From contig CAWHBD010000001.1 of the NCBI GenBank assembly GCA_963827505.1, positions 2,731,006 through 2,795,005 on the forward strand: 64,000 nucleotides of DNA. Direction: 5' to 3'. The stretch is from an uncultured Candidatus Rokubacteria bacterium. Lineage in GTDB: Bacteria > Methylomirabilota > Methylomirabilia > Rokubacteriales > CSP1-6. Under the pieces are notes generated by a model that did no database searches, had not been told where the DNA came from, and saw only the letters and a list, made by a program, of their open reading frames with translations. The position numbers and the translations under genes are program-made. Each line of letters starts with the position of its first letter. Within the stretch, counting starts at the first letter, position 1. Shown here in pieces: positions 26,856 through 62,690 of the stretch.

Positions 26856-26869
26856 TGAATGCCCGTTCA
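26856..26869. promoter_or_regulatory. Palindromic operator directly downstream of a TACAAT -10 of moxR
   Basis: TGAATGCCCGTTCA; minus-strand TACAAT at 26869-26874. Confidence 0.6.
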
Positions 26870-26897
26870 TTGTACCCGAAGGCGCCGACCTCGATCG

Positions 26898-27477
26898 TCA
26901 CCGGCTGCGGCCCCCACCGCGAATCATCCGGTCGCGAATCTCCTCCTGGGTGCGATCGGCCGGCCGATCGTCCGCGGCGCGGCGGCGGCGCGTCCGGCGG
27001 CGAGCCGCGCAGGAGGTCCAGCACGCGGGCGCCCACGCCCTTCTTCTCCCCGGGGGTCGTAACCGGTGCCGGGTCGGGCGGGGCGACTCCGCCCGGCGTC
27101 GCCCGGGCCGCGTCGGGCCACAGCGTGGCGACATCCTGCACCAGCGCGTCGGGCTCGACGCGGGCGTCGCTCGCAATCTCGCCCCACGGGGCGCCCGTGC
27201 GTCGGGCGGCGAATACCTTCTCGATCGGATGGCCGCCGCGGCTGGCGATCCGGTGCGAGATGAACAGATCGCCCCAGCCCAGCCGCGTGCCCGCCCGCTC
27301 CGCCCGCAGCGCGTCGGACGTGGTGCCCAGGAACTTCGCCATGTGCTCCACCGCGGCCGGCTCGGCCGCCGGCGTGATCGCGCGATCGACGCCGCCGGCG
27401 ACGGCATCAAGTCGATCCTGGGCGGCCGCCGGTCGCGCCGCCAGCACGAGGATGAGCAGCGCCAGCGCTCTCACCAT
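26898..27477 (-). CDS. Exported hypothetical protein, one frameshift near 26990
   Basis: Signal peptide MVRALALLILVLAARPAAA, LGWGDL and PWGEIA segments. The C-terminus continues in another frame. Confidence 0.55.
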
Positions 27478-27558
27478 CACCACGTCACCGTCACCTCCAT
27501 GCCCGTGATGCGCGCCCGCCGAAGTATGCCGCGCCCGCCCGGTATGTACAATGCGCGC

Positions 27559-28659
27559 ATGCCCGAGCCGACCCAGGCCGCGCGCTATCACCGCCGGCAG
27601 CTCTGGCTCGGGCTGGCCGGCTTCGCGCTCGGTTTCGTATATCTCGTGGTCATCCTCGCCTCGGGCGCAGCCGCCGCGCTGGCCGAGACGGTGGCGGTCC
27701 GCGTCGACGCGTGGTGGGCGCGCGTGGCCGCGGTAGCCGTGGCCCTGGCAGCGGGCCGGGCGCTGCTCGGATTGCCCCTGGCGTGGGCGCGCGGGTTCTG
27801 GCTCCCGCGGCGGTACGGCCTGTTGCACCAGCCACTCGGCTCGTGGCTCGCCGACCGCGCCAAGGCGGCCGTGCTCGGCGGCGCGCTGGCCGTGGGCGGC
27901 GTCGTGGTGCTGTACGCGTTGATCCGCACGACCGCGTGGTGGTGGCTGGTCGGCACCGCCGTGTTCCTCGTCGTCGGGATCGGGCTCGCGGCGCTGTTCC
28001 CGATCGTCGTGGTCCCGCTCTTCTACCATCTCACCCGCCTCGGCGACCCCGCGTTGGAGCGCCGGCTGCTCGGGCTGGCCGAGCGGGCCGGGGTCGCCGC
28101 CATCGGCGTGTGGATCGTGGACCAGTCGCGCAAGAGCCGCACGGCCAACGCCGGCGTCGTCGGCCTCGGCCGCACGCGTCGCATCATCCTCTTCGACACG
28201 CTGGCCACCGGATTCCGCGAGGAGGAGGTCGAGGCCGTGCTGGCCCACGAGCTGGCCCACCACGTTCACGGCGACACCTGGCGCGGGCTCGTCCTGCAGG
28301 GCGTGCTGACGCTGGTGACCTTCTGGGCGGCCGCGTGGCTGCTCGACGCCGGGGTCGCGTGGTGGGGGCTGGCGGGGCCGGCCGATCCAGCCGGGCTGGC
28401 CTGGCTGGAGCTCGTGCTCACAGTTCTGGGGGCGCTCCAGCTCCCGCTCACCAACAGCTTCTCTCGCCGGATCGAGCGACAGGCCGACGACTTCGCGCTC
28501 GGCCTCACCCGCGACCCGGCGGCGTTCATCGGCGCCATGGAGCGGCTCGGCGACCTGAACCTCGCCGAGCGCCGGCCGCACCGCCTCGAGGAATGGTTGC
28601 TCTACTCGCACCCCGCGCTCGATCGCCGCATCGAGCGCGCCAGAGGAGAAGCCGCATGA
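27559..28659 (+). CDS. M48 (Ste24-like) membrane zinc metalloprotease
   Basis: SRTANAGVVG, LAHELAHH, SRRIERQADDFA, YSHPALDRRI. Confidence 0.9.
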   Translation: MPEPTQAARYHRRQLWLGLAGFALGFVYLVVILASGAAAALAETVAVRVDAWWARVAAVAVALAAGRALLGLPLAWARGFWLPRRYGLLHQPLGSWLADRAKAAVLGGALAVGGVVVLYALIRTTAWWWLVGTAVFLVVGIGLAALFPIVVVPLFYHLTRLGDPALERRLLGLAERAGVAAIGVWIVDQSRKSRTANAGVVGLGRTRRIILFDTLATGFREEEVEAVLAHELAHHVHGDTWRGLVLQGVLTLVTFWAAAWLLDAGVAWWGLAGPADPAGLAWLELVLTVLGALQLPLTNSFSRRIERQADDFALGLTRDPAAFIGAMERLGDLNLAERRPHRLEEWLLYSHPALDRRIERARGEAA

Positions 28660-29522
28660 GCGTTCGCCGCACCCTGCGCCATCTGATCGAGCCCAAGAAC
28701 GGCCTCGTCGTCCCCGGCGCCTATGACGGCGTCTCCGCGCGACTCGTCGAGCGCGCCGGGTTCCCTGTCGTCTACATGACCGGCTACGGCACATCGGCCT
28801 CGCGCCTGGGCCTGCCCGACCTCGGCTACGCCGGTCTCGCCGAGATGGCCGATCACGCCCGCAATCTCGCCGCCGCCGTCTCCATCCCCCTGATCGCCGA
28901 CGCCGACACCGGCTACGGCAACGCCCTCGGCGTGCGGCGCACCGTGCAGGCGTACGAGACGGCGGGCGTGGCGGCGTTGCACATCGAGGATCAGGTCGCG
29001 CCCAAGCGGTGCGGTCATCTCAGCGGGCACCAGATCGTGCCGCTCGCCGAGTTCGCCGGCAAGATCCGCGCGGCGGCCGACGCCCGGCGCGATCCGGATC
29101 TCCTGATTATCGCGCGCACCGACGCCATCTCGGCCGTGGGCTTCGACGAGGCGCTCCGGCGCGGCGAGGCGGCGGTGCGGGCGGGCGCCGACGTGCTGTT
29201 CATCGAGGCGCCCCGCGACGAAGACCAAGTGGAGCGCGTGGCGAAGGCCTTCGACACGCCGCTGCTCTACAACTATGCGGCGGGGGGCCGCTCGCCGCTG
29301 CTGCCCTTCGCCCGGCTGCGGGCCCTCGGCTACGCGATCATCATCCTGCCGGTCGACACGCTGCTGGTCGCGACGAAGGCGATGGCGGGATTCCTGGCGG
29401 CCCTGCGCGCAGCCGACGACGCCGTGGCCCTCGGCGAGCAGGCCCTGCCGTTCGCGGAATTCAACGCGTTCATCGGCGCCACCGAGCAGATGGCACTGGC
29501 CGATCGCTATCGGGAGGCGTGA
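28656..29522 (+). CDS. Isocitrate lyase/PEP mutase superfamily enzyme (PrpB/2-methylisocitrate lyase-like)
   Basis: PGAYDG, DADTGYGN, HIEDQVAPKRCGH, IIARTD. Confidence 0.85.
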   Translation: MSVRRTLRHLIEPKNGLVVPGAYDGVSARLVERAGFPVVYMTGYGTSASRLGLPDLGYAGLAEMADHARNLAAAVSIPLIADADTGYGNALGVRRTVQAYETAGVAALHIEDQVAPKRCGHLSGHQIVPLAEFAGKIRAAADARRDPDLLIIARTDAISAVGFDEALRRGEAAVRAGADVLFIEAPRDEDQVERVAKAFDTPLLYNYAAGGRSPLLPFARLRALGYAIIILPVDTLLVATKAMAGFLAALRAADDAVALGEQALPFAEFNAFIGATEQMALADRYREA

Positions 29523-29592
29523 GGGACCGGGCGGAAGGGCGAGCGAGATCGGCCGAGGCGGGAGGCCCTGGTGGGCCCCCCGCCCCGATGCG

Positions 29593-30399
29593 CTAGTTCG
29601 CGACGGCGCAGACCGCGCCAGCCTCGACCGTGTCGGCGAAGTTGCTCGTGAGGGTATTGCGGATCGACAGCGTCCACTGACCACGACCGCTGGGCCAGCC
29701 GGTCCAGTCCACACCCTGCGGGAAGGGCTGGCGGACGTTGGTGGCCAATCGCGAGACGTAGCCGGAAAACACGCTGGCGCCGGCCGGGCAATTGACCGTG
29801 ATGTTCTGGATGCCGCCCATCGCCAGGACGGTCACCGACATCGGCACCGTCACGACCTGGTAACCGCTCAGCCCACTCGCACCTTGCGGTCCCGCCGGAC
29901 CAGCGGGACCCTGTGCCCCCGTCGCACCGGTGGCACCGACCGCACCGGCGGCGCCGGCCGGCCCCGCCGAACCCTGAGCGCCGGCCGGGCCCATCGGTCC
30001 CTGTGGACCAGTCGGACCCGCAGGCCCCGCGGGACCCCGCGGACCCGTACTGCCACCACCGTACGGAACGAGCGCGACCGACATCGAGTCGTACTGGTTG
30101 GACAGCCGGTTACGAGCCACGATCAGCTCGTAGGTGCCGCGGGCGATGCCGTGCGGGAGGAGAACCACGATCTCATCCGTCTTGTGGCGGACGATGTCGA
30201 GCCGGTCGTCACCGAGCCATACGGTGATCGAACGCATTCCGAATTGACCGCGCAGCGTCAGGGTGCCGCCCTCGAGATCAGGATGGGCACTCTCCAGCAC
30301 GACTGGACCGTTGTACGACGACGGACTATGCGCGAACGCCGGTGCCGCGAAGCTCAGCACCAGCAACAAGGCGACTGTGCAACGTCGTAGATGTCCCAT
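29593..30399 (-). CDS. Secreted collagen-like (Gly-X-Y) repeat protein
   Basis: Signal peptide ending SFAAPAFA, a beta-rich N-domain, about 20 Gly-X-Y triplets and a Cys-containing C-domain. GGAGAG RBS. Confidence 0.85.
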
Positions 30400-30790
30400 G
30401 TGGACTCTCCGGTTGAGAGACGGCTCAGTCCAGACGCTTGCGATGGATACCGCTTTCGCCGGCGCGGGAGCCGCACGAGTGTGTCCTGCAACCCCGCGAC
30501 CAAAACCCCGGTGCTGCGAAAACGTACACTTGACACTTCCTGACACGACCAGTCTGCGGCCACTGGATGCCGCCTTGTCACCCAGGCGGGGCGAGTTGGT
30601 AAGCCGCGTTTTGCGTACGAAAAATGTGCGATCCGCGCCCCGGAATCCCGCGCCCTCGGGCCTCCGAGGCAAACGAGGACTGACGATGCGCTGACACTGC
30701 CGGGGCCCCGGGAGGCCGCGGATGGAGTGATATAGTTCTTCCCGCCGGTAATGCCGGCGCAGCCCATCACGACCCCGCGGGGAGACCTCG

Positions 30791-31960
30791 ATGACCACGA
30801 CCAAGGAGCTGATCGGCCAGGCGGTCGACCGCTTGGCCGACGACCTCGAAGCCCTGTCGCGACGGATCCACGACCATCCCGAGCTCGCCTACCAGGAAGT
30901 CCAGGCTGCGCGGTGGCTGTCGGACTATCTGGCCGGTCAGGGCTTCGAGGTCGAGCGTGGAGTCGCCGGAGTGGAGACCGCGTTCCGGGCCACGGTCGAG
31001 ACGGGCGCCGGCCCGACGATCGCCATACTGTGCGAGTACGATGCGCTCCCGTCGATCGGCCACGCCTGCGGCCACAACGTGATCGCGACCTCGGGAGCCG
31101 GGGCCGGCGCGGCCCTGGCGGCCGTGCGCGACGCGCTGCCGGCCGGACGCATCCAGGTCATCGGCACGCCGGCCGAGGAGGGCGGTGGTGGCAAGGTCAA
31201 GCTCATCAACGGTGGCGTCTTCGAGCGCGTGGACGTGGCGATGATGATCCACGGCTTCGATCGGTGGATCCTGCACCAGGACCTGCTCGGCATCGTGCGC
31301 GTGGGCTTCGAGTTCGCCGGTAAGGCGGCTCACGCCTCCGCCGATCCGTGGGAGGGCGTGAACGCGCTCGACGCGGTGATCCAGACCTTCAACAACGTCA
31401 GCATGCTGCGCCAGCAGATCCGGCCGGACGCCCGCATCCACGGTATCGTCACCCAGGGCGGCGCCGCGCCCAACATCATCCCGGAGGCCGCGGCCTGCAC
31501 CTTCTACGTGCGGGCGGCCAAGCTCGACGAGATGTGGGCGCTGCACAAGCGCGTGGTCGCCTGCGCCGAGGGCGCGGCCACGGCGACCGGCTGCTCGCTC
31601 AAGGTCGTCGAGTTCGAGGCGCCCTACGAGCCGCTCAAGCGCAACGACACGCTGCTGGGCCTGTTCCGGGCCAACATGCGGACAACCGGAGCCGTGGAGT
31701 CGCCGCCGCTGCCCGACCGCATGGGCTCCTCCGACATCGGCAACGTGAGCCAGGTGATTCCGGCCATCCAGCCGATGGTGCAGATCGCCCCTCACGGCAC
31801 GCCGATCCACTCGCGCGACTTCGAGGCGGCGGCGGTATCGCCGCTGGCCCGCCAGGGCATGTGCCAGGCGGCCAAGACGATGGCGATGACCACCTACGAC
31901 CTGCTCGCCGATCCCGACCTGGTGAAGAAGGCGCGGGCGGAGTTCGAGGCGATGCGATGA
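30791..31960 (+). CDS. M20 family amidohydrolase
   Basis: [42 protein letters not shown]. Confidence 0.9.
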
Positions 31961-32484
31961 AGAGCCGAAGCGTCGCCGTGGTCCTCGCATCGCTGCTCGC
32001 TTCCGGGTGTGCGACCGGAAGCATCCCCGTCGACACCACGGCCCGGGCCGAGTTGCGCAACGCCGGCGGCCAGGCGGTGGGCACCGCCACCTTCACGCAG
32101 GTGGGCAACGCCGTGCGGGTGACGCTCGAGGCGCAGGGCCTGCCGGCCGGCCCCAAGGGCGTGCACATTCACGCCGTCGGCAAGTGCGACGGGCCGGACT
32201 TCGCCTCGGCCGGGAGCCACTTCAACCCCACCGGACGCCAGCACGGCGCCCTGAATGCCCAGGGCCCGCACGCCGGCGACCTGCCGAACCTCACCATCGG
32301 CGCCGACGGCAAGGGGCGGCTGGAGAGCACGACCGAGCTGATCTCGCTCGTCGGGGGACCGAGCTCGGTGTTCGACGCCGACGGCAGCGCGCTCGTCGTG
32401 CACGCCGCGCCGGATGACTTCAAGACGGATCCGACCGGGAACTCGGGCGCGCGGATCGGTTGCGGGGTGATCGGGCGCAAGTGA
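31957..32484 (+). CDS. sodC: Cu/Zn superoxide dismutase lipoprotein
   Basis: Lipobox LASGC, HIH, HFNP, HG, HAGDL, VVHAAPDD, GARIGCG. Confidence 0.9.
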   Translation: MKSRSVAVVLASLLASGCATGSIPVDTTARAELRNAGGQAVGTATFTQVGNAVRVTLEAQGLPAGPKGVHIHAVGKCDGPDFASAGSHFNPTGRQHGALNAQGPHAGDLPNLTIGADGKGRLESTTELISLVGGPSSVFDADGSALVVHAAPDDFKTDPTGNSGARIGCGVIGRK

Positions 32485-32621
32485 GCCCGGTGCCGGCGGT
32501 GCGGTCGCTACCGCCGCCCCGATCTTCCCCCTCGCAGTTTCTCGTCCAATCGCGCGCCCGTCAGAAGGCGCTTCGTCGCCCTGCGTCGCGCTGGTCCCGC
32601 GCGCCTCAAGATGACGGGTTG

Positions 32622-33779
32622 TCAGCGGCTCGGCGCCGGCAGGGGGCGCGGGGCGTGGCCCGTATAGTCGGCGCGGGGGCGAATGAGACGGTTGTCGGCG
32701 TACTGCTCGAGGGCGTGGGCGCACCAGCCGGCGATGCGACCGGTCGCGAAGATGGACGTGCAGAGATCGGCCGGGATGCCGAGGGCGTCATAGACCACCG
32801 CCGAGAAGTAGTCGACGTTCACCGGCAGGCTGGTGCGCGCGCGCATGGCGTCGTAGAGGCGCTCGGCCACCTCGAACAGTCGCTCGCGGCCGGTGGCCTC
32901 CGCCATGGACTTGGCCATGCCGCGCAGGACGCGCGCGCGGGCGTCATCCACCCGGTAGACGCGATGACCGAACCCGGGCACGCGCGACTTCGGATCCGTG
33001 CGCTGCTGCCGGCTGAGCGTGTCTCGCCGGCCGAGCCGGCTCTCCACGAATGCCTCCGCCTTGGCGGGGTCGCCGATCTCGCGCAGCATCAGCAGCACGT
33101 CCTCGTTGGCGCCGCCGTGGCTCGGCCCCTTGAGCGTGGCGATGGCGGCCACGACCGCCGAGTGCAGGTCGGCCCGGGTCGCGACGGCCACCCGGGCGGC
33201 AAAGGTGGAGGCGTTGAACTCGTGGTCGGCGTGCAGGGTCAGGATGACGTCGAGCACGCGCGCCACATCCGCCGCCGGCGCCCGCCCCTCCAGCAGCGTG
33301 AGGAACCAGGCGGCGTGGGATCCGCCGGCCGGCGCCGTCGCCGGCTCCCGGCCCTGGCGCAGGTGATGCCAGGCCGCGACCACGGCTGGGATCAGCGTCA
33401 TCAGGCGGAACGCCTTGGCCAGGTTCGCGTCGGGCTCGTTGGACGCCGCGTCGGGATCGAGCGCCGCCGCCGCCGAGACCGCGGTGCGGAGCGCGTCAAG
33501 CGGATGGCTCGTGCGCGGCAGTCCCCGCAGCAGGGCCACCAGCGGCGCCGGCAATGCGCGGGCCTCGGCCAGCCGCGCCCGGAACGCGCGCGCCTCGTCG
33601 GTAGCCGGCAGCTCGCCGTGCCACAGCAGGCGGGTGACGTCCTCGAACGGCACCGCGCCGGCCAGGTCGCCGATCTCGTAGCCGCGGTAGTAGAGCCGCC
33701 CGGCGCCGCCGTCGATCGTGCAGACTCCGGAGCGAGCGGCGATGACGTCCTCCAGCCCAGCCTTCCAGTCGCTGTCCAT
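32622..33779 (-). CDS. Citrate/2-methylcitrate synthase
   Basis: LYYRGY, HADHEFNASTF, GPSHGGAN, GFGHRVY, NVDYFSA. Confidence 0.92.
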   Translation of the reverse strand: MDSDWKAGLEDVIAARSGVCTIDGGAGRLYYRGYEIGDLAGAVPFEDVTRLLWHGELPATDEARAFRARLAEARALPAPLVALLRGLPRTSHPLDALRTAVSAAAALDPDAASNEPDANLAKAFRLMTLIPAVVAAWHHLRQGREPATAPAGGSHAAWFLTLLEGRAPAADVARVLDVILTLHADHEFNASTFAARVAVATRADLHSAVVAAIATLKGPSHGGANEDVLLMLREIGDPAKAEAFVESRLGRRDTLSRQQRTDPKSRVPGFGHRVYRVDDARARVLRGMAKSMAEATGRERLFEVAERLYDAMRARTSLPVNVDYFSAVVYDALGIPADLCTSIFATGRIAGWCAHALEQYADNRLIRPRADYTGHAPRPLPAPSR

Positions 33780-33816
33780 GTGTGCCCTCCTCCCGGCGGC
33801 CCGCGGCCGGCCCTGC

Positions 33817-33845
33817 TATATTGATACTACATGATTTATATTGAT
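33817..33845. promoter_or_regulatory. AT-rich direct repeat (TATATTGAT x2, 20-bp period) between citrate synthase and the HTH gene
   Basis: TATATTGAT at 33817-33825 and 33837-33845. Confidence 0.6.
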
Positions 33846-33906
33846 TCAACCGCCTGGAACGGGGCGCCGGGGACAGCCCCGCGCGCCATCTGGTAGCCTG
33901 CGGGCG

Positions 33907-34137
33907 ATGGTGATCCTGGACGGCGAAGAGTTCCTGACGGTCGAGGAAGCGGCCGCACTCCTGGGGGTAAAGCGGGAGACGCTCTACGCCTACGTGAGCC
34001 GCGGGGTCCTCAAGAGCTACCGCCAGGGCATCAAGCGGCAGCGCCTGTACCGCCGGGCCGAGGTGGCGGCGCTGATCAGGCTGGACCGCGGCCGCCGGCC
34101 GGTGATCCCGCCGGCCGAGGACTGGATCCGCGACTGA
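33907..34137 (+). CDS. Stand-alone MerR/excisionase-like HTH protein (76 aa)
   Basis: LTVEEAAALLGVKRETLYAYVSRG. Confidence 0.85.
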   Translation: MVILDGEEFLTVEEAAALLGVKRETLYAYVSRGVLKSYRQGIKRQRLYRRAEVAALIRLDRGRRPVIPPAEDWIRD

Positions 34138-34149
34138 GGCGCGGCCGCG

Positions 34150-34725
34150 CTACCCCAGCGCGGCCACGATTTTCCGCGACTGCTTCATGTGGTCGATGGC
34201 GTGCCGCCTCCACGACACCATCGCGTACGCCTTCCAGTCGAGATCCTCGACCCAGTGCAGCGGCCGCACCCGGCCGTCGGGCCCGGTGACGTTCACCACC
34301 ATGACGATCGGCGCCCGGGCGTCGGTCTCGAACGCGACCGGCACCGCCGCCAGCACCTCGACGACGTCGCGCTGGGCCCGGCGCAACTCGTCCAGCAGCC
34401 ACGACCACGGCCGCAGCGAGGGGGCCTTGGATTGCAGCGCCGCCGGGATGGGATCGCCTGGCGGGCGCTCGCCGGCCAGGACGCACCGCAGCTCGTCGAG
34501 GCCAGGCCGGTAGGTCTCCACGAGGTGGTCGACCACCTCCTGCACCGACCACTCGCCGGCGAGGGGGCGCTCGGCGGCGCGGCCGGGTGGCACGCCGGCC
34601 AGCACCGCTTCCAGAGCCTTCATCGCCGCCGTGATCCGATCGCGCACCTCGAGCGGCGTCAGTGTGGCGGTGCTGCTGAAGTACTCGCGGGCGCGCGCCT
34701 GAGCCTGGGTCTCTGCCGCCGTCAT
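34150..34725 (-). CDS. DinB-family protein
   Basis: GEWSVQEVVDHL and HAIDHMKQ. Confidence 0.7.
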   Translation of the reverse strand: MTAAETQAQARAREYFSSTATLTPLEVRDRITAAMKALEAVLAGVPPGRAAERPLAGEWSVQEVVDHLVETYRPGLDELRCVLAGERPPGDPIPAALQSKAPSLRPWSWLLDELRRAQRDVVEVLAAVPVAFETDARAPIVMVVNVTGPDGRVRPLHWVEDLDWKAYAMVSWRRHAIDHMKQSRKIVAALG

Positions 34726-35330
34726 GGAGTCTCCTTCGCGAGGTAACGGGCGATGGCGTCGTCGCAGAACCGCGCGGCGTCGGCGACGCTGAACGCCTCG
34801 GGATCGAACGTGAGCTGCAGAGAGACGCCGTCCACCAGGCCGAGCACGACGGCGGCCGCCCGCTGCGGGTCCACCGCCCGGAAGTGGCCGGCCGTGACGC
34901 CCTCGCTGACGAGGCGGCCGATCAGCCGGCGCGTGCGCGCGTAGACCTCGGCGTTCACCTCGCGCAGCCGCCGGTCGTGCATCATCTCGCCCCAGAACTC
35001 GAGGAAGACGACCCAGACCTCGGGCTGGCGGACGGCGACGTCCAGGCAGGCGCGCACGAGGGCGCGCAGGCGGGCGGCGGGATCACGGCCGGTCCGCGAC
35101 TGGGCGGCGGCGACCCGGCGGTCGAGGTCCCGGCTGACCGTCTCCAGGGTGGCGGCGAGGATCGCGCGCTTGTCGGCGAAGTAGTAGTGGAGGATGCCCT
35201 GGCTCACCCCCGCCGCCCGCGCGACCTTCTTCATGGTGAGCCGGGTGTAGCCGTCGCGGGCGAGGCAGCGCACGGTCGCCCGCACGATCTGCTCCCGCCG
35301 CACCGGACCCATGCCGACCTTGGGACTCAT
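34722..35330 (-). CDS. TetR-family regulator (BetI-like C-domain)
   Basis: LTMKKVARAAGVSQGILHYYFADK; GLVDGVSLQ. Confidence 0.9.
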   Translation of the reverse strand: MSPKVGMGPVRREQIVRATVRCLARDGYTRLTMKKVARAAGVSQGILHYYFADKRAILAATLETVSRDLDRRVAAAQSRTGRDPAARLRALVRACLDVAVRQPEVWVVFLEFWGEMMHDRRLREVNAEVYARTRRLIGRLVSEGVTAGHFRAVDPQRAAAVVLGLVDGVSLQLTFDPEAFSVADAARFCDDAIARYLAKETP

Positions 35331-35343
35331 GCCGGGTTCCTTT

Positions 35344-35361
35344 ATTGACTGGCCGACCAAT
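35344..35361. promoter_or_regulatory. Imperfect palindrome, candidate TetR operator
   Basis: ATTGACTGGCCGACCAAT just upstream of the tetR start. Confidence 0.45.
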
Positions 35362-35405
35362 TATCTTCGACATCAGCCGATCGCGCAACCGGGCACGTCA
35401 GCGAA

Positions 35406-37001: not shown

Positions 37002-37036
37002 GGTCACCGCGATGGTAGCACCGACGACGGAGGCGA

Positions 37037-41297: not shown

Positions 41298-41298
41298 C

Positions 41299-42006: not shown

Positions 42007-42977
<971 letters not shown>

Positions 42978-49883: not shown

Positions 49884-49893
49884 TCCCGCTGCC

Positions 49894-50466: not shown

Positions 50467-50485
50467 CGTCGGCCGCGCCCCGGGC

Positions 50486-52017: not shown

Positions 52018-52060
52018 GGTTTCTTATAGCGTGTAAGACCGCAAAAGACCTTGCAAAACG

Positions 52061-52090
52061 TTGACAGGCGAGCAACGCGCTTCGTATGAT
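52061..52090 (+). promoter_or_regulatory. Sigma-70-type promoter of the tol-pal operon
   Basis: TTGACA-N18-TATGAT, followed by an AAGGAG RBS. Confidence 0.65.
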
Positions 52091-52115
52091 CGAACAAAAG
52101 TAAAAGGAGCAGCCG

Positions 52116-52847: not shown

Positions 52848-53268
52848 CCTCGGATCGTCGGAGGGCGGCGAGCGACGTCTGGGCTCGTCGCTGGCCGAGA
52901 TCAACATCATCCCGCTGGTCGACGTCGTCCTGGTCCTCCTGCTGATCTTCATGCTGACGGCGCCCATGATGTACCGCGGCATCGACGTGAACCTGCCGCG
53001 GGCCGCCGCCAAGCCGACCGCGGTGGAGGAGCGGATGGTCCTCACGGTCACCAAGGACCGGACGCTCTACCTCAACGACAAGCGGGTGGCGGCGGGCAGC
53101 CTCGACACCCAGCTGCGGGCCGCCATGCAGGGGAGGACGGACAAGACGCTCTACCTCAAGGCTGATGCCGGCCTGGCCTACGGAGCGGTCATCGAAACGA
53201 TGGACCAGGTGCGCCGGGCCGGTATCGAGCGCCTGGGCATGGTAACCGAGCCCACGCGGGAGCGCTGA
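52837..53268 (+). CDS. tolR: TolR (ExbD family)
   Basis: EINIIPLVDVVLVLLLIFMLTAP. Confidence 0.9.
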   Translation: MAFNLGSSEGGERRLGSSLAEINIIPLVDVVLVLLLIFMLTAPMMYRGIDVNLPRAAAKPTAVEERMVLTVTKDRTLYLNDKRVAAGSLDTQLRAAMQGRTDKTLYLKADAGLAYGAVIETMDQVRRAGIERLGMVTEPTRER

Positions 53269-53270
53269 GG

Positions 53271-54176: not shown

Positions 54177-54180
54177 CCCG

Positions 54181-55512
54181 ATGAGCATTCGACGCCAACT
54201 CGCGCTGATCCTCCTGGTCACCCTGGCCCTGCCCGGCATGTGGCCGGTGGCGCCGCCGCCGCCCGCTCGCGCCCAGGCCGTGGACGTGTTCCTCAACGTC
54301 ACCGGCGGCGGCGCCCGCAAGCTCAACATTGCCGTCCCGGAGTTCACGGTCACCACCGGCGCCGATCCCACCGGGATCGGCAAGCTGCTGTCGACAGTGG
54401 CCGGGGCCGACCTCACCTTCTCGGGCCTCTTCAGCGTCGTGGCCGCCGAGGGCGCCATCCCCGCCAACAATCCGGAGGCGTTGCGGCGCTCGTGGACGGA
54501 GTTCGCGGCGGCCGGTGCCCACGCCGGCGTGCACGGGCTGGCCGCGCTGCGCGGCGATCGGGCCGAGGTCGAGATGCGTCTGTACGACCTGACGACCCCC
54601 GATCATCGGCTGATCGGCACCAAGAAGTTCGAGCTGCCGGTCGCCCAGGCGCGGCGCCTCGGTCACAAGGTCGCCGACGAGGTCGTGCTGCAGTTCACCG
54701 GTGAGCCCGGCATCGCCGACACCAAGATCGCCTACGTGACCGGACCCCGGGGGGCGAAGGAGATCCTGATGGCCGACTACGACGGTGCCGGCATCACCTC
54801 GGTGACGAAGAACGGCTCGATCAATCTCTCGCCCGTGTGGAGTCCGGACGCGCGGTCGCTGGCGTTCACCTCCTACAAGCAGGGCTATCCAGACCTCTAC
54901 CGGGCGTTTCCGTTCGAGCGGCGCCCCGACCAGACGCTGGCTGCCTTCGTCGGCATCAACACCTCGCCCGCCTTCAGCCCCGACGGCAAGAGCCTGGCGA
55001 TGACCCTCAGCAAGGACGGCAATCCCGAGATCTACGTGCTCAACCTGGCCAGCGGCGTCATGCGGCGCCTCACGCGCCACGCCGGCATCGACACCGAGCC
55101 GAGCTGGGCACCGACCGGCCGTCAGATCGCGTTCATCTCCGACCGCTCCGGCACGCCCCACGTCTACGTGATGGATGCTGAGGGCGCCAACGTCCGCCAG
55201 CTCACGTCGGGCGGGTTCCACACCCAGCCGCGGTGGTCGCCGCGCGGTGACACGATCGCCTACACGCAGCGGGCGGGCGCCCACGATATCTGGGTCGTGG
55301 ACGTCGACGGCTCCAACCCCCGCCGGCTCACGAACGGCGGCGACAACCAGGGCCCGACGTGGGCTCCGAGCGGCCGCCATCTCGCGTTCCAGTCCAACCG
55401 TCTCGGTCGCTGGCAGATCTTCGCCGTGCTCGCCGACGGCACCGCGGCCGCACCCATCACGCGAGGCGCCACCGAGAGCACAAGTCCTTCGTGGTCCCCT
55501 CGCTTGCCGTGA
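54181..55512 (+). CDS. tolB: TolB
   Basis: N-domain followed by PD40 repeats (SPVWSPD, SPAFSPDG, EPSWAP). Confidence 0.92.
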   Translation: MSIRRQLALILLVTLALPGMWPVAPPPPARAQAVDVFLNVTGGGARKLNIAVPEFTVTTGADPTGIGKLLSTVAGADLTFSGLFSVVAAEGAIPANNPEALRRSWTEFAAAGAHAGVHGLAALRGDRAEVEMRLYDLTTPDHRLIGTKKFELPVAQARRLGHKVADEVVLQFTGEPGIADTKIAYVTGPRGAKEILMADYDGAGITSVTKNGSINLSPVWSPDARSLAFTSYKQGYPDLYRAFPFERRPDQTLAAFVGINTSPAFSPDGKSLAMTLSKDGNPEIYVLNLASGVMRRLTRHAGIDTEPSWAPTGRQIAFISDRSGTPHVYVMDAEGANVRQLTSGGFHTQPRWSPRGDTIAYTQRAGAHDIWVVDVDGSNPRRLTNGGDNQGPTWAPSGRHLAFQSNRLGRWQIFAVLADGTAAAPITRGATESTSPSWSPRLP

Positions 55513-55565
55513 TACGATTTCGCTGCTTCAGAGTGTTCAGGTGCCGGTGTCAACAAGGAGGCGAC

Positions 55566-56168
55566 ATGCTGTCAAGCCGCTGGATTCACGTCACGATGAC
55601 GTCGTTGCTGCTCTTCGGTGTAGTCCTGGCGGGTTGCGCGAAGCGGCCGGCGACCACCCAGGCATCGGCGCCCGCCCCCACCGCCGCCGCGGCGACGACG
55701 CCCGGGAGCGGGCCAGCCATGGCTCCGGCCCCGGCCGCCCCCTCGGGCGACGCAACCACGGCTCCGGCCACGGCGGCGCCGTCCACGGCGACGCCGGCGG
55801 CTCGTCCCCCCGTCGCGGAGTTCCGGTCGGTCCCCGAGCTGAAGGACGCGTTCTTCGACTTCGACAAGTACGACATCCGCCCGGCTGACGCCAAGGTGCT
55901 CGACGCCAACGCCACCTGGCTGAAGGCGAACGCGAACAACCTGGTCCTGATCGAGGGACACTGCGACGAGCGCGGCACCAACGAGTACAACCTCGCGCTC
56001 GGCGAGCGTCGCGCGAAGTCGACGATGAACTACCTCGTCTCCCAGGGCGTCCAGGCCAGCCGCATCACGATCATCAGCTACGGTGAAGAGCGGCCCACGT
56101 GCAGCGAGAAGACCGAAGAGTGCTGGGCCAAGAACCGCCGCGCCCACTTCCTCGTCAAGCCCCGCTAG
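55566..56168 (+). CDS. pal: Peptidoglycan-associated lipoprotein
   Basis: Lipobox LAGC, FFDFDK, IEGHCDERGTNEYNLALGERRA, NRRA. Confidence 0.95.
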   Translation: MLSSRWIHVTMTSLLLFGVVLAGCAKRPATTQASAPAPTAAAATTPGSGPAMAPAPAAPSGDATTAPATAAPSTATPAARPPVAEFRSVPELKDAFFDFDKYDIRPADAKVLDANATWLKANANNLVLIEGHCDERGTNEYNLALGERRAKSTMNYLVSQGVQASRITIISYGEERPTCSEKTEECWAKNRRAHFLVKPR

Positions 56169-56182
56169 GCACCGCTGAGTCG

Positions 56183-57181
56183 GTGACGAGGCGGTCGCGC
56201 GGCCGCCTCGTCGCCGGGTTGTCTGTCGTCGGGCTGGTCTTCCTCGCCGGATGTGCCAGTGTCGCCGACGTCACCGGCACCGCCACCCAGCAGGACCTCG
56301 TGGAGATGCGGGGTGAGATCGCGTCCGCGCGCCAGGCGGCCCAGCGTGCCCGCGCCGACGCGGAGAGCGCCGCCCAGCGCGCCGTCGACGTGCGGCTGCG
56401 CACACAAGGGGCGGAGAGCGAGCGTCAGCTGGCCACACTCACCCGCCGCCTCGACACGCTCGCCACCTCGGTCAGCGAGCTCGGTGCGCGCGTCGACGAG
56501 CTATCGGCTCGCGTGGATGCGCTGGGGCGGCAGGTGCGAAGCGGCGCGCCGGCTGGCCCCGCCGGCCCGGGCGGACCCGCCGCGCCCCGCACGGCAACGC
56601 CGCCCGGACCGCTGGGCGCACCATCCCCGGCGCCGGGCGCCGCGACGGCAACACCCGCGATACCGGTCGTGCCGGCGACCCCGGCACCGGCCGCGCCCGC
56701 GGCGCCCCCGGCCACGCCCCAGACGCCGACGGCGGGCGCGCGGCCGGCCACCAACGCGCTCCAGCCGCAAGACATCTATCAGGCGGCGTACATCGACTTC
56801 AGCAAGGGCAGTTACGCGCTCGCCATGGCCGGCTTCCGCGAGTTCCTGCGCCGCTTCCCCGATCACCCGCTGGCCGGCAACGCGCAGTATTGGATCGGCG
56901 AGGGCCACTTCAGCCTGGCCCGGGGCCACACCAACGCCGGCCAGGCCGACAAGGCGACGCAGGAGCTGGAGCAAGCGGTGCAGGAGTTCAGGAAGGTGCT
57001 GGCGAACTATCCCCGGGGCGAGAAGGCGCCGACCTCGCTCTACAAGGAAGCGCTGGCCTTGGTCGAGCTGAAGCAGCCGGCGCTGGCCCAGCAGCGGCTG
57101 GAGTACCTGATCGCCAGCTTCCCCCAGGCGGAGGAGACCCCGCTCGCGCGAGAGCGGCTGGCCGCGATCAAGGGCCGGTAG
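56183..57181 (+). CDS. cpoB: CpoB/YbgF (coiled coil, Pro/Ala linker, TPR)
   Basis: Lipobox LAGC, FLRRFPDHPLAGNAQYWIGE; last gene of tol-pal. Confidence 0.88.
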   Translation: MTRRSRGRLVAGLSVVGLVFLAGCASVADVTGTATQQDLVEMRGEIASARQAAQRARADAESAAQRAVDVRLRTQGAESERQLATLTRRLDTLATSVSELGARVDELSARVDALGRQVRSGAPAGPAGPGGPAAPRTATPPGPLGAPSPAPGAATATPAIPVVPATPAPAAPAAPPATPQTPTAGARPATNALQPQDIYQAAYIDFSKGSYALAMAGFREFLRRFPDHPLAGNAQYWIGEGHFSLARGHTNAGQADKATQELEQAVQEFRKVLANYPRGEKAPTSLYKEALALVELKQPALAQQRLEYLIASFPQAEETPLARERLAAIKGR

Positions 57182-57184
57182 CCG

Positions 57185-57670
57185 TCAGTCCTTGTCCAGC
57201 CCGAAGACCCAGACGACGGCGACGTCCTGCTCGGGCGTGGAGTAGACCATCACGGTGCCGCGAGGGTCATCGGTGCTGGCCGAGGTAACCAGCACGCCGG
57301 TCTCGAGCAGCGGCTGGCCCGGCGTCCACTGCCACACGCCGACCGACATCAGCAGCGCCGCCATCGCTCCCGCAAGTGCCCAGCGTGGACGGGCCACGCG
57401 CTGCCACCAGGACCGGGCGGGCGGCGCCGGCCGGGCGTGGCGCCGGTCCTCGATGCCACGCACGACACCCGGCCAGAACCCTGACCAGTCCGGCTCGACG
57501 GCGGCGACGGTACCCCGCAACAGCCCATGGAGACGGCGCAACTCGTCGGCCTCCCGCTGGCAACTCCCACAAGAAGCGAGGTGAGCGGCCGTCAAGCGCG
57601 CCGTCTCCTGGTCGAGAGCCCCGTCCAGGTATCCACCGATGCGTCGCCGGGTCCGGTAGCAGGTCAACAC
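57185..57670 (-). CDS. zf-HC2 (ZAS) anti-sigma factor-like protein
   Basis: YLDGAL..HLASCGSC, a TM helix and a short periplasmic tail. Confidence 0.8.
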   Translation of the reverse strand: MLTCYRTRRRIGGYLDGALDQETARLTAAHLASCGSCQREADELRRLHGLLRGTVAAVEPDWSGFWPGVVRGIEDRRHARPAPPARSWWQRVARPRWALAGAMAALLMSVGVWQWTPGQPLLETGVLVTSASTDDPRGTVMVYSTPEQDVAVVWVFGLDKD

Positions 57671-57714
57671 GTCCGTTGGACGGCGCCTCCCCCCCTCGTT
57701 ATTCTCACGGCTGG

Positions 57715-58341
57715 ATGATACCCGAACGTCCGGTTACCTTCGGCACCCCCGGGCTGGAGGGCGCCCTAGCCCAGCGCCCAGGGGCTCGGGCCGGGGTGGT
57801 CGTCTGCCACCCACATCCCCGGTACGGCGGAGACATGGACAGCCCCGTGGTGGTGACGGCCGCCGGCGCCTGCGGCCAGGCCGGCCTGGCGACCCTCCGA
57901 TTCAACTTCCGGGGTGTCGGCCGGTCGGCCGGGGCCTGGGATGAGGGCCGCGGAGAGCAGGACGACGTCCGCGCCGCCGTGGGACACCTCGCCGAGGTGC
58001 TGGGGCCCGCGGTCCCGGTGGCCCTGGCGGGCTATTCCTTCGGGGCCGCCATCGCCGCGCAGGTCGCGGCATCCGGAGCGGCGCTGGCCGGCCTGCTTCT
58101 CATCGCGCCGCCGCTGGCCAGGCGAGGCCTACCCGCCTGGCCGGCGGCCGTGCAGGGTCAGGTGCTGGTCGTGGCGGGCAGCGCCGACACCTACTGCCCA
58201 GCCCCGGCCCTGGCGGCGCTAGCCAAGGCGTGGCCGGCGGCCACCGTGACAGTGCTGGCCGGCGCGGACCACTTCTTCGTTGGCGGGCTCGAGCCACTCG
58301 ACGCGGCAGTCAGGGACTGGGCGGCGAAGGTGCCTCGATAG
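57715..58341 (+). CDS. Alpha/beta hydrolase (COG2945-like)
   Basis: CHPHPRYGGDMD, RFNFRGVG, GYSFG, ADHFF. Confidence 0.88.
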   Translation: MIPERPVTFGTPGLEGALAQRPGARAGVVVCHPHPRYGGDMDSPVVVTAAGACGQAGLATLRFNFRGVGRSAGAWDEGRGEQDDVRAAVGHLAEVLGPAVPVALAGYSFGAAIAAQVAASGAALAGLLLIAPPLARRGLPAWPAAVQGQVLVVAGSADTYCPAPALAALAKAWPAATVTVLAGADHFFVGGLEPLDAAVRDWAAKVPR

Positions 58342-58344
58342 CGG

Positions 58345-58944
58345 CTACACCCGGGGCAGGCGGTTGGGGGTCGCGGTCCCGGCCGAGAGGATGACCCGCA
58401 GCCCCTCCTCGACCGTGAGCCCCGTGAAGATCACGTCGCTGCGCGGCACCACCACCACGTCGCCCAGGTAGAGGTTGTTGGTCGGCACGAAAACCGTCAC
58501 CATCTCGCCCTTTCCCACCGGCGACTCCAGCGTCAGCTCGCTGGTGACGAAGGCGAAGGCCCACGTGCCCTCCCGGGGGTGCTGGACGAGGACGACGGCC
58601 TTGAACGATCCCCGCCGCTCCGGCGAGAACGAATCGATCAGCATCTTGATCGAGGGATAGAGCAGGCGGAAGACCGGCACCCGGTACAGGAGCTTGTCGC
58701 CGAACGAGAGCACCCGGCGCCCCACCACGTTGCGGGCCACGATGCCCATGAGCAGGATGATCGCGACGGCCGTCAGGAAACCGAGACCCCACCCCGCCAC
58801 CGGCCGGCCCAGCATGCGTCCGTAGATCGGCGCGAATCGGTCGTCGATCCAGCTCCAGAAGATCCACAGGATCCAGGAGGTGGCGATGGCCGGAAGCGTC
58901 ACGAAGATCCCGGCGATGAAGCGAACCTTCAGCCAGTTCTTCAT
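58345..58944 (-). CDS. DUF502 family membrane protein
   Basis: FIAGIFVTLP, VFVPTNN, LSAG. Confidence 0.85.
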   Translation of the reverse strand: MKNWLKVRFIAGIFVTLPAIATSWILWIFWSWIDDRFAPIYGRMLGRPVAGWGLGFLTAVAIILLMGIVARNVVGRRVLSFGDKLLYRVPVFRLLYPSIKMLIDSFSPERRGSFKAVVLVQHPREGTWAFAFVTSELTLESPVGKGEMVTVFVPTNNLYLGDVVVVPRSDVIFTGLTVEEGLRVILSAGTATPNRLPRV

Positions 58945-59096
58945 CGTGCGCGATCACTCATGCCGATGCGATCATGACACCGCTCCACCTCAATCGCAAA
59001 ACCCCCAACACCACGCCGAGGGTTCCTGAGCAAGAACGCCCGCTCGCAAAGCGATAGAAGGCAGGGAGGAGCGCAACCCTAGCCGCGCGACGACCG

Positions 59097-59123
59097 TCGG
59101 AAGGGGGCTCAGCCCCCCTCCGA
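59097..59123. repeat. GC-rich hairpin right after the pepM stop (terminator/REP-like)
   Basis: TCGGAAGGGGGCT-C-AGCCCCCCTCCGA. Confidence 0.55.
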
Positions 59124-59125
59124 GC

Positions 59126-60727
59126 TCAGATTGCCGACGCGTCGATCAGATCCGTGAGGTTGTTGACGTTGACCCAGCCGCCCCGCGTGTAGACGACGGT
59201 CACGGGCCGGCCCCTGGCCAGCACGCGGGCGAGCAGGTCGGTGAGTCGCGCGCTCGCCAGCGTGCCGTCGACGCGCGCCTCGGCGATGGCCTCGCGCAGC
59301 CAGGCGGCGCCGGTGCCACCCAGGTGGAGCAGGCCGATCCAGCCTCCGTGGCTGTCCTCGGCGCTCACGGCCTCGCCGACGGCGTCGAGCTGCACGGGCT
59401 CGAAGCTGAAGCGCCCAGCATCAGGCCGGCTGCCGCGCACGCGGTCGGCGACCGCCTGGCCGGCCAGGGCGCTGTCGACCGACAGCGTGATCCCCTCCCC
59501 CGCCTCCTCCAGCAGCGCCTGCACGATGTGCCGCTTGAGCACGATGTCGCCGAACGCGAGCAGCGTGCCGGGCCCCAGCGCGGTCTCGGCCAAGGCCAGC
59601 GAGTAGGCCTCGCTGGTCGTCGCGAAATCCGGGTTGTCGACGAAGCGGGCGCCGGCCATCTGCACGGCCTCGCCCCGGTAGCCGCGCACCACGGTGACCG
59701 CGCGGCAGCCGAAGTGGCCGAGGTCGTCGAGCAGCCGGGCCAGGATCGGCCGGCCCTGCACCTTGAGCATGGCCTTGGGCACCGCCGCCGTGAGGCCGCC
59801 GAAGTCGGCCCCGGCGCCGGCAGCCAGGATCACCGCCGACAGCGTGTCCTCGCGGGCGGCCGGCAGGTAGCGGCGCTCGGCCTGCTCCAGCTCCTCGTCA
59901 CCCTGCAGCCGGAACACCTCGGGCAGCGGCGCCACCTGGGGCTCGACGTCGATGAGCGACTGGTCGGTGTGCAGGCGCCGGGCCGTGGCCTGCATGGCCG
60001 AGATGGCCGCCCGCAGCAGGTGGTTGGCCCACACGACCACGCTGACGCCGCGGGCGCGGTACTCCGCCGTCGGCGTGCGCCAGTACTTGGTCGGCACCAG
60101 CACCACCGGCGCCCGGTTGGCCCAGGCGTCGAGGAACGCGATGATCTCGGCCGCGCTCGACTGGCGGCTGTGGATCAGGATCGCGTCGGCGCCGGCCAGG
60201 TGGTAGGCCTCCGCCCGCCGGATCGCCTCGGCCAGCCCCCAGCCGGCGATCAGCGCCTCGACGCGGGCCACGAGGACGAAGTCGGAGTCGGCCTGGCTGT
60301 CCTTGCCGGCCTTGATCTTGCCGCAGAACTCCTCGACGTCGGCCAGCGGCTGCTGCTCGGAGCGCAGGAACGAGTTCGTCTTCGGGAAGAGCTTGTCCTC
60401 GATGGTGACGCCGGCCACGCCGGCCTGCTCCAGCTTGCGCACGAGGCGGCGCATGTTGTTGAAGTTGCCGTAGCCGGTGTCGCCGTCGACCAGCACCGGC
60501 ACCGCGGCGGCGTCGGCCATGAAGCCGACGTGGTCCACCACCTGCGACCAGGACAGCTCGTTGTTGTCGCGGACGCCGAACGAGGCCGACGTCGTGAGGC
60601 CGCTGGCCCACACGGCCTCGAAGCCGGCCTCGGCGGCGATACGGGCCGAGATGCCGTCGTGAGCCTCCATCAGGAACGCGATCTCGGGCCGGCTCACCAG
60701 TCGCCGTAGCTGGGTCGTGCGCTTCAC
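59126..60727 (-). CDS. pepM: Phosphoenolpyruvate mutase fused to an NTP-transferase domain
   Basis: PepM signature [26 protein letters not shown]; C-domain VILAAG...PKAML. Confidence 0.93.
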
Positions 60728-60729
60728 CG

Positions 60730-61878
60730 TCAGCCTCCGAGCACGGCCGCCCGGAATCGATCCCGGAGAACGGCCGGCGTGTAGGGGATGCGCGGGACGT
60801 CCGCCTCCTCGGCGGTGACCTTGACGAGCACGAAGTGGGGACCGTCGGCGCCGAACGCGGCCCGCAGTGCCGACTCCAGCGCCCACGGCTCGGTCACCGC
60901 CACCGCGGTGGCGAAGCCGGCGGCGGCGGCCACACGGTCGAGGCGCACACCCCGCGAGAGCGAGGCCTGGTTGCCGGTGGAGCCGTAGACCTCGTTGTCG
61001 AAGACGAGGTGGACGAAGTTGGCGGGCCGCCGGTCGGCGATCATGGCCAGGATGCCGAGGTTCATCAGCAGATTGCCGTCGCCGTCGAAGACCACCGCGC
61101 GACGGTCGGGCCGCGTCAGGGCCAGGCCGAGGCCAATGGCCGGGGCCAGTCCCATCGAGCCGATCATGTAGAAGCTCTGGGGGCGGTCGGCCAGCGAGAA
61201 GCTCTCGCGGCAGATGTAGCCGTTGGCGTGAGCGATCGGATCGTCGCCGGCGGCCTTGAGCGCGATGCCGAGCGCGGTGAGCCGCGGCATCGTCGCCGGC
61301 GGCAGCAGCCCGTCGGGCGCGGGTGGCGCCGCCACCGGGGTGACGGCGGCGGCCGTGCGGGCGGCCGCACCGCCGTGAACGGCGCCCGTCTCGACGACCT
61401 TCGGCGGCACCAGGAGCGCGACGGGCGAGTGGCGCGCGTTCATCTCGGCGGCGGCCCAGGCCAGGTCAGCGTCGAGCGAGTCGACGGCGAGCACGCGATG
61501 GGGCACGCCCAGCAGCTCGAGAAGCCTCGGTGAGATCTCGCCGGTGAGGATGTGCTCGGGCGCGTCCTTGCCGCCGAAGCCGCGCCACGTCACGATCAGG
61601 AGCGCCGGGAGGCCGTACATGAGTGAGAGCGACGCCAGCGCGTTGAGGCTGGTGCCAAGCCCGGAGTTCTGCATCAGCACCACCGGCCGCCGGCCTCCGA
61701 ACCAGGCGCCGGCCGCCACCCCGACCGCGGCGTCCTCGCGCACGGCCGCCACGTAGGGGGCACGGGTGCCGCGCTCCAGCACGGCGATGAGGTCCTCGAT
61801 CAGCGAGCACGGCACCCCCGTGAAGAAGTCGAAGCCGTGGCGCTCGAGGCGGGCGGCGAAGTCGTGGCCGGAGATCAT
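60730..61878 (-). CDS. ppd: Phosphonopyruvate decarboxylase (fused alpha/beta, TPP-dependent)
   Basis: [35 protein letters not shown]...[11 protein letters not shown]; directly upstream of pepM. Confidence 0.85.
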
Positions 61879-61888
61879 CGCGGCCCGC

Positions 61889-62599
61889 TCAGGTCCGGGC
61901 GACGCGGCTGCCGCCCATCACGCGCAGGAAGTCGCCGAGGGCGGCGAAGCGCATGAACGGGTTCTGGCGCTTCTCGTCGCCGATCGTCGACGCCGCCCCG
62001 CCGTAGTTGTGGCCGGGGAAGAGGACGGTGTCGTCGGGCAGCGCGCCCAGACGCTGGGTGAGCGAGTAGTACATCTCGCTGGGATCGCTGCCCGGCAGGT
62101 CGGTGCGGCCGCACGAGCCGATGAACAGGGTGTCCCCCGAGATCAGCCGCCCGTCGACCAGGAAGCACTGCGAGCCCGGCGTGTGTCCAGGGGTGTGCAG
62201 GAAGGTCAGCCGCAGGCGACCAACCTCGAGCGTGTCGTGGTTGTCGACCTTCACGAGGTCGGAGCCGAGGCCGGGCAGGAACTCGCGCTCGGCCTTGTGC
62301 ACGTAGACCCGGGACGGCGCCCGGGCCAGCAGCTCCTCAACCCCGGGGATACGTCCCGGCATGCCCCACGAGGCCAGGCTACCCCCCACGTGGTCCTGGT
62401 GGGTGTGAGTCACCAGCGCCCCGATCAGCCTCATCCCGTCGGCGGCCACGGTGTCGACGATCGTGTCGATTTCCCAGGCGGGATCGACCACCACGCACTC
62501 ACGGGCGACGGGGTCTCCGACCAGGTAGACGAAGTTCTGCATGGGGCCCAGCTCGAGCTGCTTCAGGTAGATCGCGTCCGCGTCCGGCACGGGGGTCAT
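61889..62599 (-). CDS. MBL-fold hydrolase (glyoxalase II-like)
   Basis: THTHQDH, TPGHTPGS, SGDTLF, GRTDL, PGH. Confidence 0.85.
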   Translation of the reverse strand: MTPVPDADAIYLKQLELGPMQNFVYLVGDPVARECVVVDPAWEIDTIVDTVAADGMRLIGALVTHTHQDHVGGSLASWGMPGRIPGVEELLARAPSRVYVHKAEREFLPGLGSDLVKVDNHDTLEVGRLRLTFLHTPGHTPGSQCFLVDGRLISGDTLFIGSCGRTDLPGSDPSEMYYSLTQRLGALPDDTVLFPGHNYGGAASTIGDEKRQNPFMRFAALGDFLRVMGGSRVART

Positions 62600-62639
62600 G
62601 CTACCCCAGCCCCCGAGACTGCGCTACAATCCGAACTAC

Positions 62640-62653
62640 TGAACGGACGTTCA
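62640..62653. promoter_or_regulatory. Palindromic operator downstream of TACAAT (62625-62630)
   Basis: TGAACGGACGTTCA. Confidence 0.65.
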
Positions 62654-62690
62654 TTCATTCAGTAAGCGACCGAGCCAGAGGAGTCCGACG

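Follow-up and report, generated by a model that had tools for sequence, protein, structure and literature searches.

Two inverted repeats in the window

The stretch of DNA analyzed here, called the window throughout, is 64,000 nucleotides long (C1:2731006-2795005) and belongs to the 7.0 Mb, 70% GC genome, assembled in four contigs, of an uncultured bacterium of the Rokubacteria. It contains two short inverted repeats (dyads) of closely similar sequence. The first lies in front of a two-gene operon encoding a MoxR-class AAA+ ATPase and a VWA protein, and the second in front of a gene coding for a ferritin-like dimetal-carboxylate protein of the AurF family. Their locations and conservation, and their resemblance to an operator of solved structure, suggest that both are binding sites for a FadR regulator of the Bacillus type.

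Box 1, TGAATGCCCGTTCA, occupies positions 26856-26869 and reads TGAACGGGCATTCA (its reverse complement) on the strand of the AAA+ gene (25916-26833, minus strand; 305 aa), whose ATG at 26833 is 22 nt away. A TACAAT -10 hexamer at 26869-26874 on the same strand has its last base in common with the box. Box 2, TGAACGGACGTTCA (62640-62653), is situated within a 91-bp gap between two divergent genes, one for a metallo-beta-lactamase (MBL)-fold hydrolase (61889-62599, minus strand) and the other for the AurF-like protein (62691-63689, plus strand; 332 aa). It begins 9 nt past a TACAAT hexamer (62625-62630, plus strand), and the ATG at 62691 is 37 nt further on. The sequences TGAACGGGCATTCA and TGAACGGACGTTCA are identical at 12 of 14 positions, differing at positions 8 and 10, and box 2 is extended by TTCATTCAGT (62654-62663, plus strand), which adds ATTCA half-sites at a shift of 4 bp; GTTCATTCA is found again in several of the orthologous sites. 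The two dyads with their 12 matching positions, the TACAAT hexamers and the extension had been pointed out in a preliminary description of the window, and all are present; it proposed that a single TetR-family repressor of the lipid- or acyl-CoA-responsive kind acts at both sites.

The pattern TGAAYGNNCRTTCA given in that description has G and C fixed in the spacer, and it matches the two window sites only, in the window as in the whole genome, with no matches in 100 shuffles of the window. The four central bases vary freely among orthologous sites, and the fixed G and C are therefore not part of the motif; what counts is TGAAY-N4-RTTCA. A looser search with TGAAYNNNNRTTCA yields six matches in the genome compared with one for a reversed control, and all six are located directly 5' of gene starts. 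When scored with a weight matrix derived from orthologous sites, the six exact sites reach 19.6-23.9 bits, two additional sites 18.0, and all others 14.5 or less. Each of three relatives has 5-8 exact dyads and no match to the reversed control pattern. These dyads precede fadR, the DUF455 operon described below, the AAA+ gene and an acyl-CoA dehydrogenase gene; those in front of a catalase gene, a histidine kinase gene and a SorC regulator/ligase pair are apparently fortuitous matches or sites of another factor. One site, flanked by genes for a SorC-type regulator and an ATP-dependent DNA ligase-like protein, is a perfect palindrome, TGAACATGTGTTCA (L176, G133:C11:214973), and is probably the site of another factor.

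Conservation of the dyad upstream of orthologous genes

Footprinting of upstream regions shows that the dyad is kept in front of orthologues of both window genes. Upstream of the AAA+ gene it is present as TACAATGAAC-N4-RTTCA in 20 of 29 Rokubacteria orthologues, and upstream of the AurF-like gene as gCGCTAnAAT-N8-10-TGAAC-N4-GTTCA in 17 of 45, these 17 being found among the approximately 32 loci that retain the MBL neighbor. The same dyad precedes the operon of a DUF455 ferritin-like protein (13 of 30 orthologues) and a single-copy TetR-family gene (26 of 30 promoters). Two further features stand out. First, its position is constant across many genera, on or just past a TAnAAT -10 hexamer, and the remaining intergenic sequence has diverged; in the AAA+ orthologues TACAAT or TAGAAT runs into the dyad, and in those of the AurF-like gene the gCGCTAnAAT element is kept. 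Second, when perfect 5-mer dyads are enumerated exhaustively over spacers of 0-8, without any prior pattern, TGAAC-N4-GTTCA is the top-ranking dyad in each of three sets of ortholog upstream regions.

A Bacillus-type FadR as the predicted regulator

One copy of the box, TGAATCGCGATTCA at C1:374717, is located about 25 nt upstream of the TetR-family gene (C1:374.1-374.7 kb), which is 2.4 Mb from the window and is followed by genes for an enoyl-CoA hydratase and a short-chain dehydrogenase (SDR). With a read-through query, 56 of 61 family members prove to have exactly one intact orthologue of this regulator each, 72-87% identical. The 26 promoters carrying the dyad have the arrangement TTGACA-17-TAGAATGAAC-N4-GTTCA, in which a TTGACA-17-TAGAAT promoter runs directly into the dyad, the classic layout of a repressor gene that controls itself.

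Against the NCBIfam FadR equivalog NF053878 (cut-off 200), the intact orthologue of a same-genus relative reaches 207 bits, and in a PDB search the regulator aligns over its full length with FadR of B. subtilis (3WHB, E 7e-41) and of B. halodurans (5GP9, E 7e-39), with the recognition helix AGxAxGTIYLYFKxK of FadR almost unchanged. The B. halodurans FadR operator is GATGAATGAATACTCATTCAT, consisting of 16-bp inverted repeats with their halves 4 bp apart and one dimer bound per repeat (PMC5397183). The consensus of the B. subtilis FadR box is WTGAATGAMTANTCATTCAN, with the half-site ATGAAT, and the geometry of TGAAY-N4-RTTCA is that of both (TGAAT-N4-ATTCA).

Both window dyads are thus very probably operators of a FadR of the Bacillus type (YsiA family, TetR fold). 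Four observations speak for this: the sites are present, they are conserved, the regulator is orthologous to FadR, and the box shares the geometry of a solved operator. The binding of FadR, the repression and the response to acyl-CoA are predictions from these sequence features. A FadR dimer would bind TGAAY-N4-RTTCA on or just past the -10 hexamer and block RNA polymerase, long-chain acyl-CoA would release the repressor, and fadR, with a box on its own promoter, would be autoregulated. The predicted regulon comprises beta-oxidation-type genes, the operon for the DUF455 protein, a MiaE_2-like protein and acyl-CoA carboxylase, the AAA+/VWA pair (site 1), and the AurF-like gene (site 2), possibly with its MBL partner. 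The earlier proposal of one TetR-family repressor of the lipid or acyl-CoA type for both sites is very probably correct, and the regulon, which had been regarded as undescribed, would instead be that of FadR. The switch is of a known kind in a new phylum; its regulon members are unusual, and the mechanism itself is ordinary.

Several points weigh against this reading. First, a consensus scan recognized no full -35/-10 promoter at either window site. The operators do overlap the -10/start region, as the preliminary description held in assigning them to a repressor position, but because no full promoter was recognized this assignment derives from the conserved -10 hexamer by itself. Second, fadR is frameshifted in this genome, a point tempered by the frameshifts that occur throughout the assembly and by the intact copy in the same-genus relative. 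Third, the box is absent or degenerate in 28 of 45 AurF-like, 9 of 29 AAA+ and 17 of 30 DUF455 orthologues, and control is therefore lineage-variable. Fourth, ArgR, LexA or ArsR/SmtB regulators with similar cores may share the sites or compete for them. Finally, the raw count of the dyad is unremarkable: permuted-arm dyads of matched composition give 0-6 genome matches (28 for one of them), and the window count with mismatches allowed is that of shuffled sequence.

Genome-wide over-representation was accordingly dropped as evidence. These chance-level counts are also what would be expected if two unrelated AT-rich intergenic words simply happened to match. Such a coincidence is hardly credible, as both sites are kept in place in orthologues from many genera, with diverged flanks, the occurrence expected from base composition is about 2e-4 per region as compared with the 38-87% observed, and the unbiased enumeration places the same dyad first. 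Counts alone are weak; the position and conservation of the dyad are the decisive evidence beyond chance.

Nor does it seem at all likely that the dyads are bound by some regulator other than FadR with a similar core, be it ArgR, LexA, a metal sensor of the ArsR/SmtB type, or the BetI-type TetR encoded within the window. The cores of the first three are TGAAT-N4-ATTCA (ArgR), GAAC-N4-GTTC (LexA, the Cheo-type SOS box) and TGAA-N6-TTCA (ArsR/SmtB). Site 2 does include a perfect GAAC-N4-GTTC, and the metalloprotein-like character of the regulated products (diiron, MBL, and VWA with its metal-ion-dependent adhesion site, MIDAS) would suit a metal sensor. In a relative, moreover, TGAATGTTCATTCA and then a second AT-rich box stand in front of an argR-like gene (L180, G027:C6:1742912). 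Against these, the strongest and most conserved copy of the dyad is that of the fadR promoter, and others precede acyl-CoA dehydrogenase genes.

Three of these candidates can be considered individually. LexA was rejected in that the lexA promoter of this genome carries CTCAAC-N4-GTTGAG and the recA promoter TGCACGCGTGCA, with no TGAAC dyad at either. ArgR was rejected in that the Rokubacterial boxes are single and have GC-rich centers, whereas ARG boxes are tandem and AT-rich, and the gene content is also unfitting; an argR homologue of the type in G027 is not detectable in this genome. The TGAATGTTCATTCA site is likely an ARG box whose core is that of a FadR box, and the two regulons may thus cross-talk or be mistaken for one another in predictions. 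The BetI-type TetR (34722-35360, minus strand; Pfam TetR_N and TetR_C_6), put forward as a candidate in the preliminary description, is probably not the regulator, as the window contains no further dyad even with one mismatch allowed, and the fadR gene at C1:~374 kb would take its place. As a separate observation, the lexA palindrome CTCAACACTGGTTGAG and the recA palindrome TGCACGCGTGCA differ from one another (G000 C2:545510-545560, C3:2327500-2327560).

Predicted regulon members outside the window

The six exact boxes of the genome precede the fadR-enoyl-CoA hydratase-SDR genes, two acyl-CoA dehydrogenase genes, the DUF455 operon, the AAA+/VWA pair and the MBL/AurF-like pair, the identities of the dehydrogenases, hydratase and SDR having been read from translations. 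The two acyl-CoA dehydrogenases are paralogues, and both of their boxes are TGAACGGTGGTTCA. The DUF455 operon (G000 C1:494400-497990) encodes the DUF455 ferritin-like protein, then an ExxH protein with a weak MiaE_2 match, and then acyl-CoA carboxylase subunits. Those orthologues of this operon that lack the dyad have a different, TATAAT promoter; in about half of the orthologous operons the FadR promoter is replaced by a CGTATAAT promoter that is only some 6-8 nt from the start codon, and the transcript would therefore be leaderless.

Several of these genes are interrupted by frameshifts, which are found across the assembly. Reading of the VWA gene (24498-25911), fadR (C1:374100-374700), both acyl-CoA dehydrogenase genes and the DUF455 operon requires 2-3 frames in each case, and C3:15000-16900 is among the regions affected; the estimated completeness of this four-contig genome is 63%. 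The frameshifts look like long-read indel error rather than pseudogenization, and a long-read metagenome-assembled genome of the same genus (G144) has similar frameshifts in places.

The AurF-like gene and its neighbors

The protein encoded downstream of box 2 matches the Pfam AurF family with 55.7 bits and has the two E...ExxH motifs, four Glu and two His on a four-helix core, that are expected of a ferritin-like dimetal-carboxylate protein with an R2lox/ADO-like fold (ADO, aldehyde-deformylating oxygenase). Across 24 AurF-like sequences the predicted metal ligands E103, E133, H136, E182, E212 and H215 show no variation. Its score against the NCBIfam R2lox equivalog is 43.7 bits (cut-off 194), far short of R2lox proper, and the best PDB matches of its AlphaFold2 model (pLDDT 87) are R2lox and then ADO. 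Both R2lox and ADO bind fatty acids or aldehydes (PMC9314684), and from the modeled fold the AurF-like diiron protein looks lipid-related, which fits with membership of a lipid-responsive regulon.

The divergently transcribed MBL-fold hydrolase is glyoxalase-II-like, and its pairing with the AurF-like gene is seen in about 32 of 45 loci. Downstream of it are genes for a phosphonopyruvate decarboxylase and a phosphoenolpyruvate mutase fused to a nucleotidyltransferase (59126-61878, minus strand; TIGR03297, 302 bits; TIGR02320, 372 bits). These phosphonate genes are present in the closest relatives only, a lineage-specific addition, and the phosphonate biosynthesis operon behind the MBL gene (59126-62599, minus strand) is within reach of FadR box 2.

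The AAA+/VWA pair

The AAA+ protein is MadB-like, with matches to Pfam AAA_5, AAA_2 and AAA_3, and the VWA protein (24498-25911, minus strand) is of the CoxE type and MadC-like, with a match to Pfam VWA_CoxE. Both fall below the NCBIfam equivalog thresholds, the AAA+ protein scoring 352 bits against MadB (NF047784; cut-off 475) and the VWA protein 152 bits against MadC (cut-off 600); nothing in 14 control genomes is above the cut-off, and a literature search found no relevant paper on MadB/MadC of this kind. Identity of the AAA+ protein across the order is 78-98%, and a homologue search with it returned nothing beyond close relatives labeled 'MoxR-like ATPase'. In this genome the VWA gene falls into five or more frame pieces, recovered by tblastn in three frames, and the phase of the GC content at third codon positions switches along the gene. 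It is intact in relatives (462-469 aa), and intact orthologues have Walker A and B motifs in the AAA+ protein (GPAGVGKT, DEIDK) and a DxSxS MIDAS in the VWA protein (DVSDS). The pair is a self-contained two-gene unit whose neighbors change between genera, and no gene for a client enzyme was found beside it in the neighborhoods compared.

Upstream of the AAA+ promoter and on the same strand is a gene for a small exported protein (26898-27410, minus strand), with its stop codon 24 nt before the -10 hexamer. The protein is conserved, at about 170-200 aa, and has no Pfam or NCBIfam match; its gene adjoins the AAA+ promoter in several genera but was not found at the corresponding position in the G002 genome, and beyond it is a divergent M48 peptidase gene. 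Most relatives also have a second MoxR-class AAA+ paralogue at about 50% identity (G000 C2:153019-153819; L187 4944-5858), which in G002 is located behind an ABC transporter operon of the branched-chain amino-acid type with no VWA gene adjoining.

The preliminary description supposed that the MoxR-VWA pair matures the diiron enzyme. In a broader form, the AurF/R2lox-like oxidase or other FadR-controlled ferritin-like proteins might depend on the pair for insertion or repair of the dimetal site, by analogy with NorQ/NorD and its client. The two window operons do have a predicted repressor in common, the fact that one small regulon includes three ferritin-like proteins (AurF-like, DUF455 and MiaE_2-like) is circumstantially in favor, and the Walker and MIDAS motifs of the intact orthologues would suit such an activity. 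NorQ/NorD is itself a MoxR/VWA pair required for insertion of the non-heme iron of nitric oxide reductase (PMC9976466). Nonetheless, it seems unlikely that the pair acts as a chaperone for these proteins. First, no client gene adjoins the AAA+/VWA operon. Second, the distributions of the genes argue against a dedicated pairing: of the 151 genomes sampled from the phylum, approximately 95 have an AAA+ orthologue and 38 an AurF-like one, such that about 60 genomes have the former without the latter and four have the reverse. Third, in at least two genomes that are more than 90% complete (G057 and G080), the AAA+ gene is accompanied by neither an AurF-like nor a DUF455 gene. Finally, many dimetal-carboxylate proteins, R2lox among them, were metal-reconstituted in vitro according to their solved-structure entries.

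A still more elaborate scheme can be drawn, although we consider it a doubtful one. The acyl-CoA sensor would induce, alongside beta-oxidation, a lipid-oxidation module made up of as many as three ferritin-like enzymes, the MoxR/VWA pair as a metal loader or repairer, and the MBL protein as a thioesterase feeding free fatty acid to the R2lox-like enzyme. If true, this would place R2lox-type proteins, the role of which has yet to be settled, in a physiological setting and give them their first chaperone. The FadR assignment has consequences of its own: it provides a well-supported predicted transcription-factor regulon for an uncultured soil phylum, Rokubacteria, widens the range of the Bacillus-type FadR box to a distant phylum, and places under a fatty-acid signal three sets of proteins of unknown function (the highly conserved MoxR/VWA pair, the R2lox/AurF-like protein with MBL, and the DUF455/MiaE_2-like proteins), which narrows the search for their substrates.

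Comparison with known systems

The AAA+/VWA pair has the same organization as NorQ/NorD, CbbQ/CbbO, CoxD/CoxE and RavA/ViaA, with a MoxR-class AAA+ gene followed by one for a VWA protein with a MIDAS (PMC9976466), the VWA protein here being of the CoxE type. It differs from the nor, cbb and cox pairs in having no adjoining client gene, and from pairs of the NorQ/NorD type in being apparently under the control of a fatty-acid sensor, as predicted from its operator. The AurF-like protein shares with the AurF, R2lox and ADO ferritin-like oxidases the four-helix core with four Glu and two His, and its Pfam AurF match is above the gathering score. Its identity to R2lox and ADO is only about 20%, with TM-scores of 0.5-0.7, and unlike them it is encoded in a pair with an MBL-fold hydrolase gene.

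The closest parallel to the regulatory system as a whole is FadR of B. subtilis and B. halodurans (3WHB, 5GP9/5GPC), with which the Rokubacterial protein is orthologous over its full length and has the same recognition helix in common. Both systems use a TGAAT/TGAAC half-site with 4-bp spacing in a 16-bp inverted repeat, place the operator over the promoter, have a box on the regulator's own promoter, and include acyl-CoA dehydrogenase and enoyl-CoA hydratase genes in the regulon. A limited check of the FadR literature found no mention of a MoxR/VWA pair or of ferritin-like dimetal proteins as FadR targets. There are three further differences. First, the Rokubacterial half-site preference is for TGAAC, not TGAAT. 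Second, the Rokubacterial operators are mostly single inverted repeats, whereas in Bacillus two repeats displaced by 4 bp together bind a dimer of dimers; at site 2 the TTCATTCA extension likewise gives half-sites shifted by 4 bp, as do the tandem half-sites of the Bacillus double operator. Third, the Rokubacterial regulon is small (5-8 sites) and belongs to an uncultured phylum (Methylomirabilota). The TetR-type FadR of Thermus thermophilus is also an acyl-CoA sensor, with the operator TTRNACYNRGTNYAA, a short dyad over promoters of fatty-acid degradation genes. That operator differs from the Rokubacterial box in both spacing and consensus, and in the PDB search the Rokubacterial FadR is much closer to the FadR of Bacillus than to that of Thermus thermophilus.

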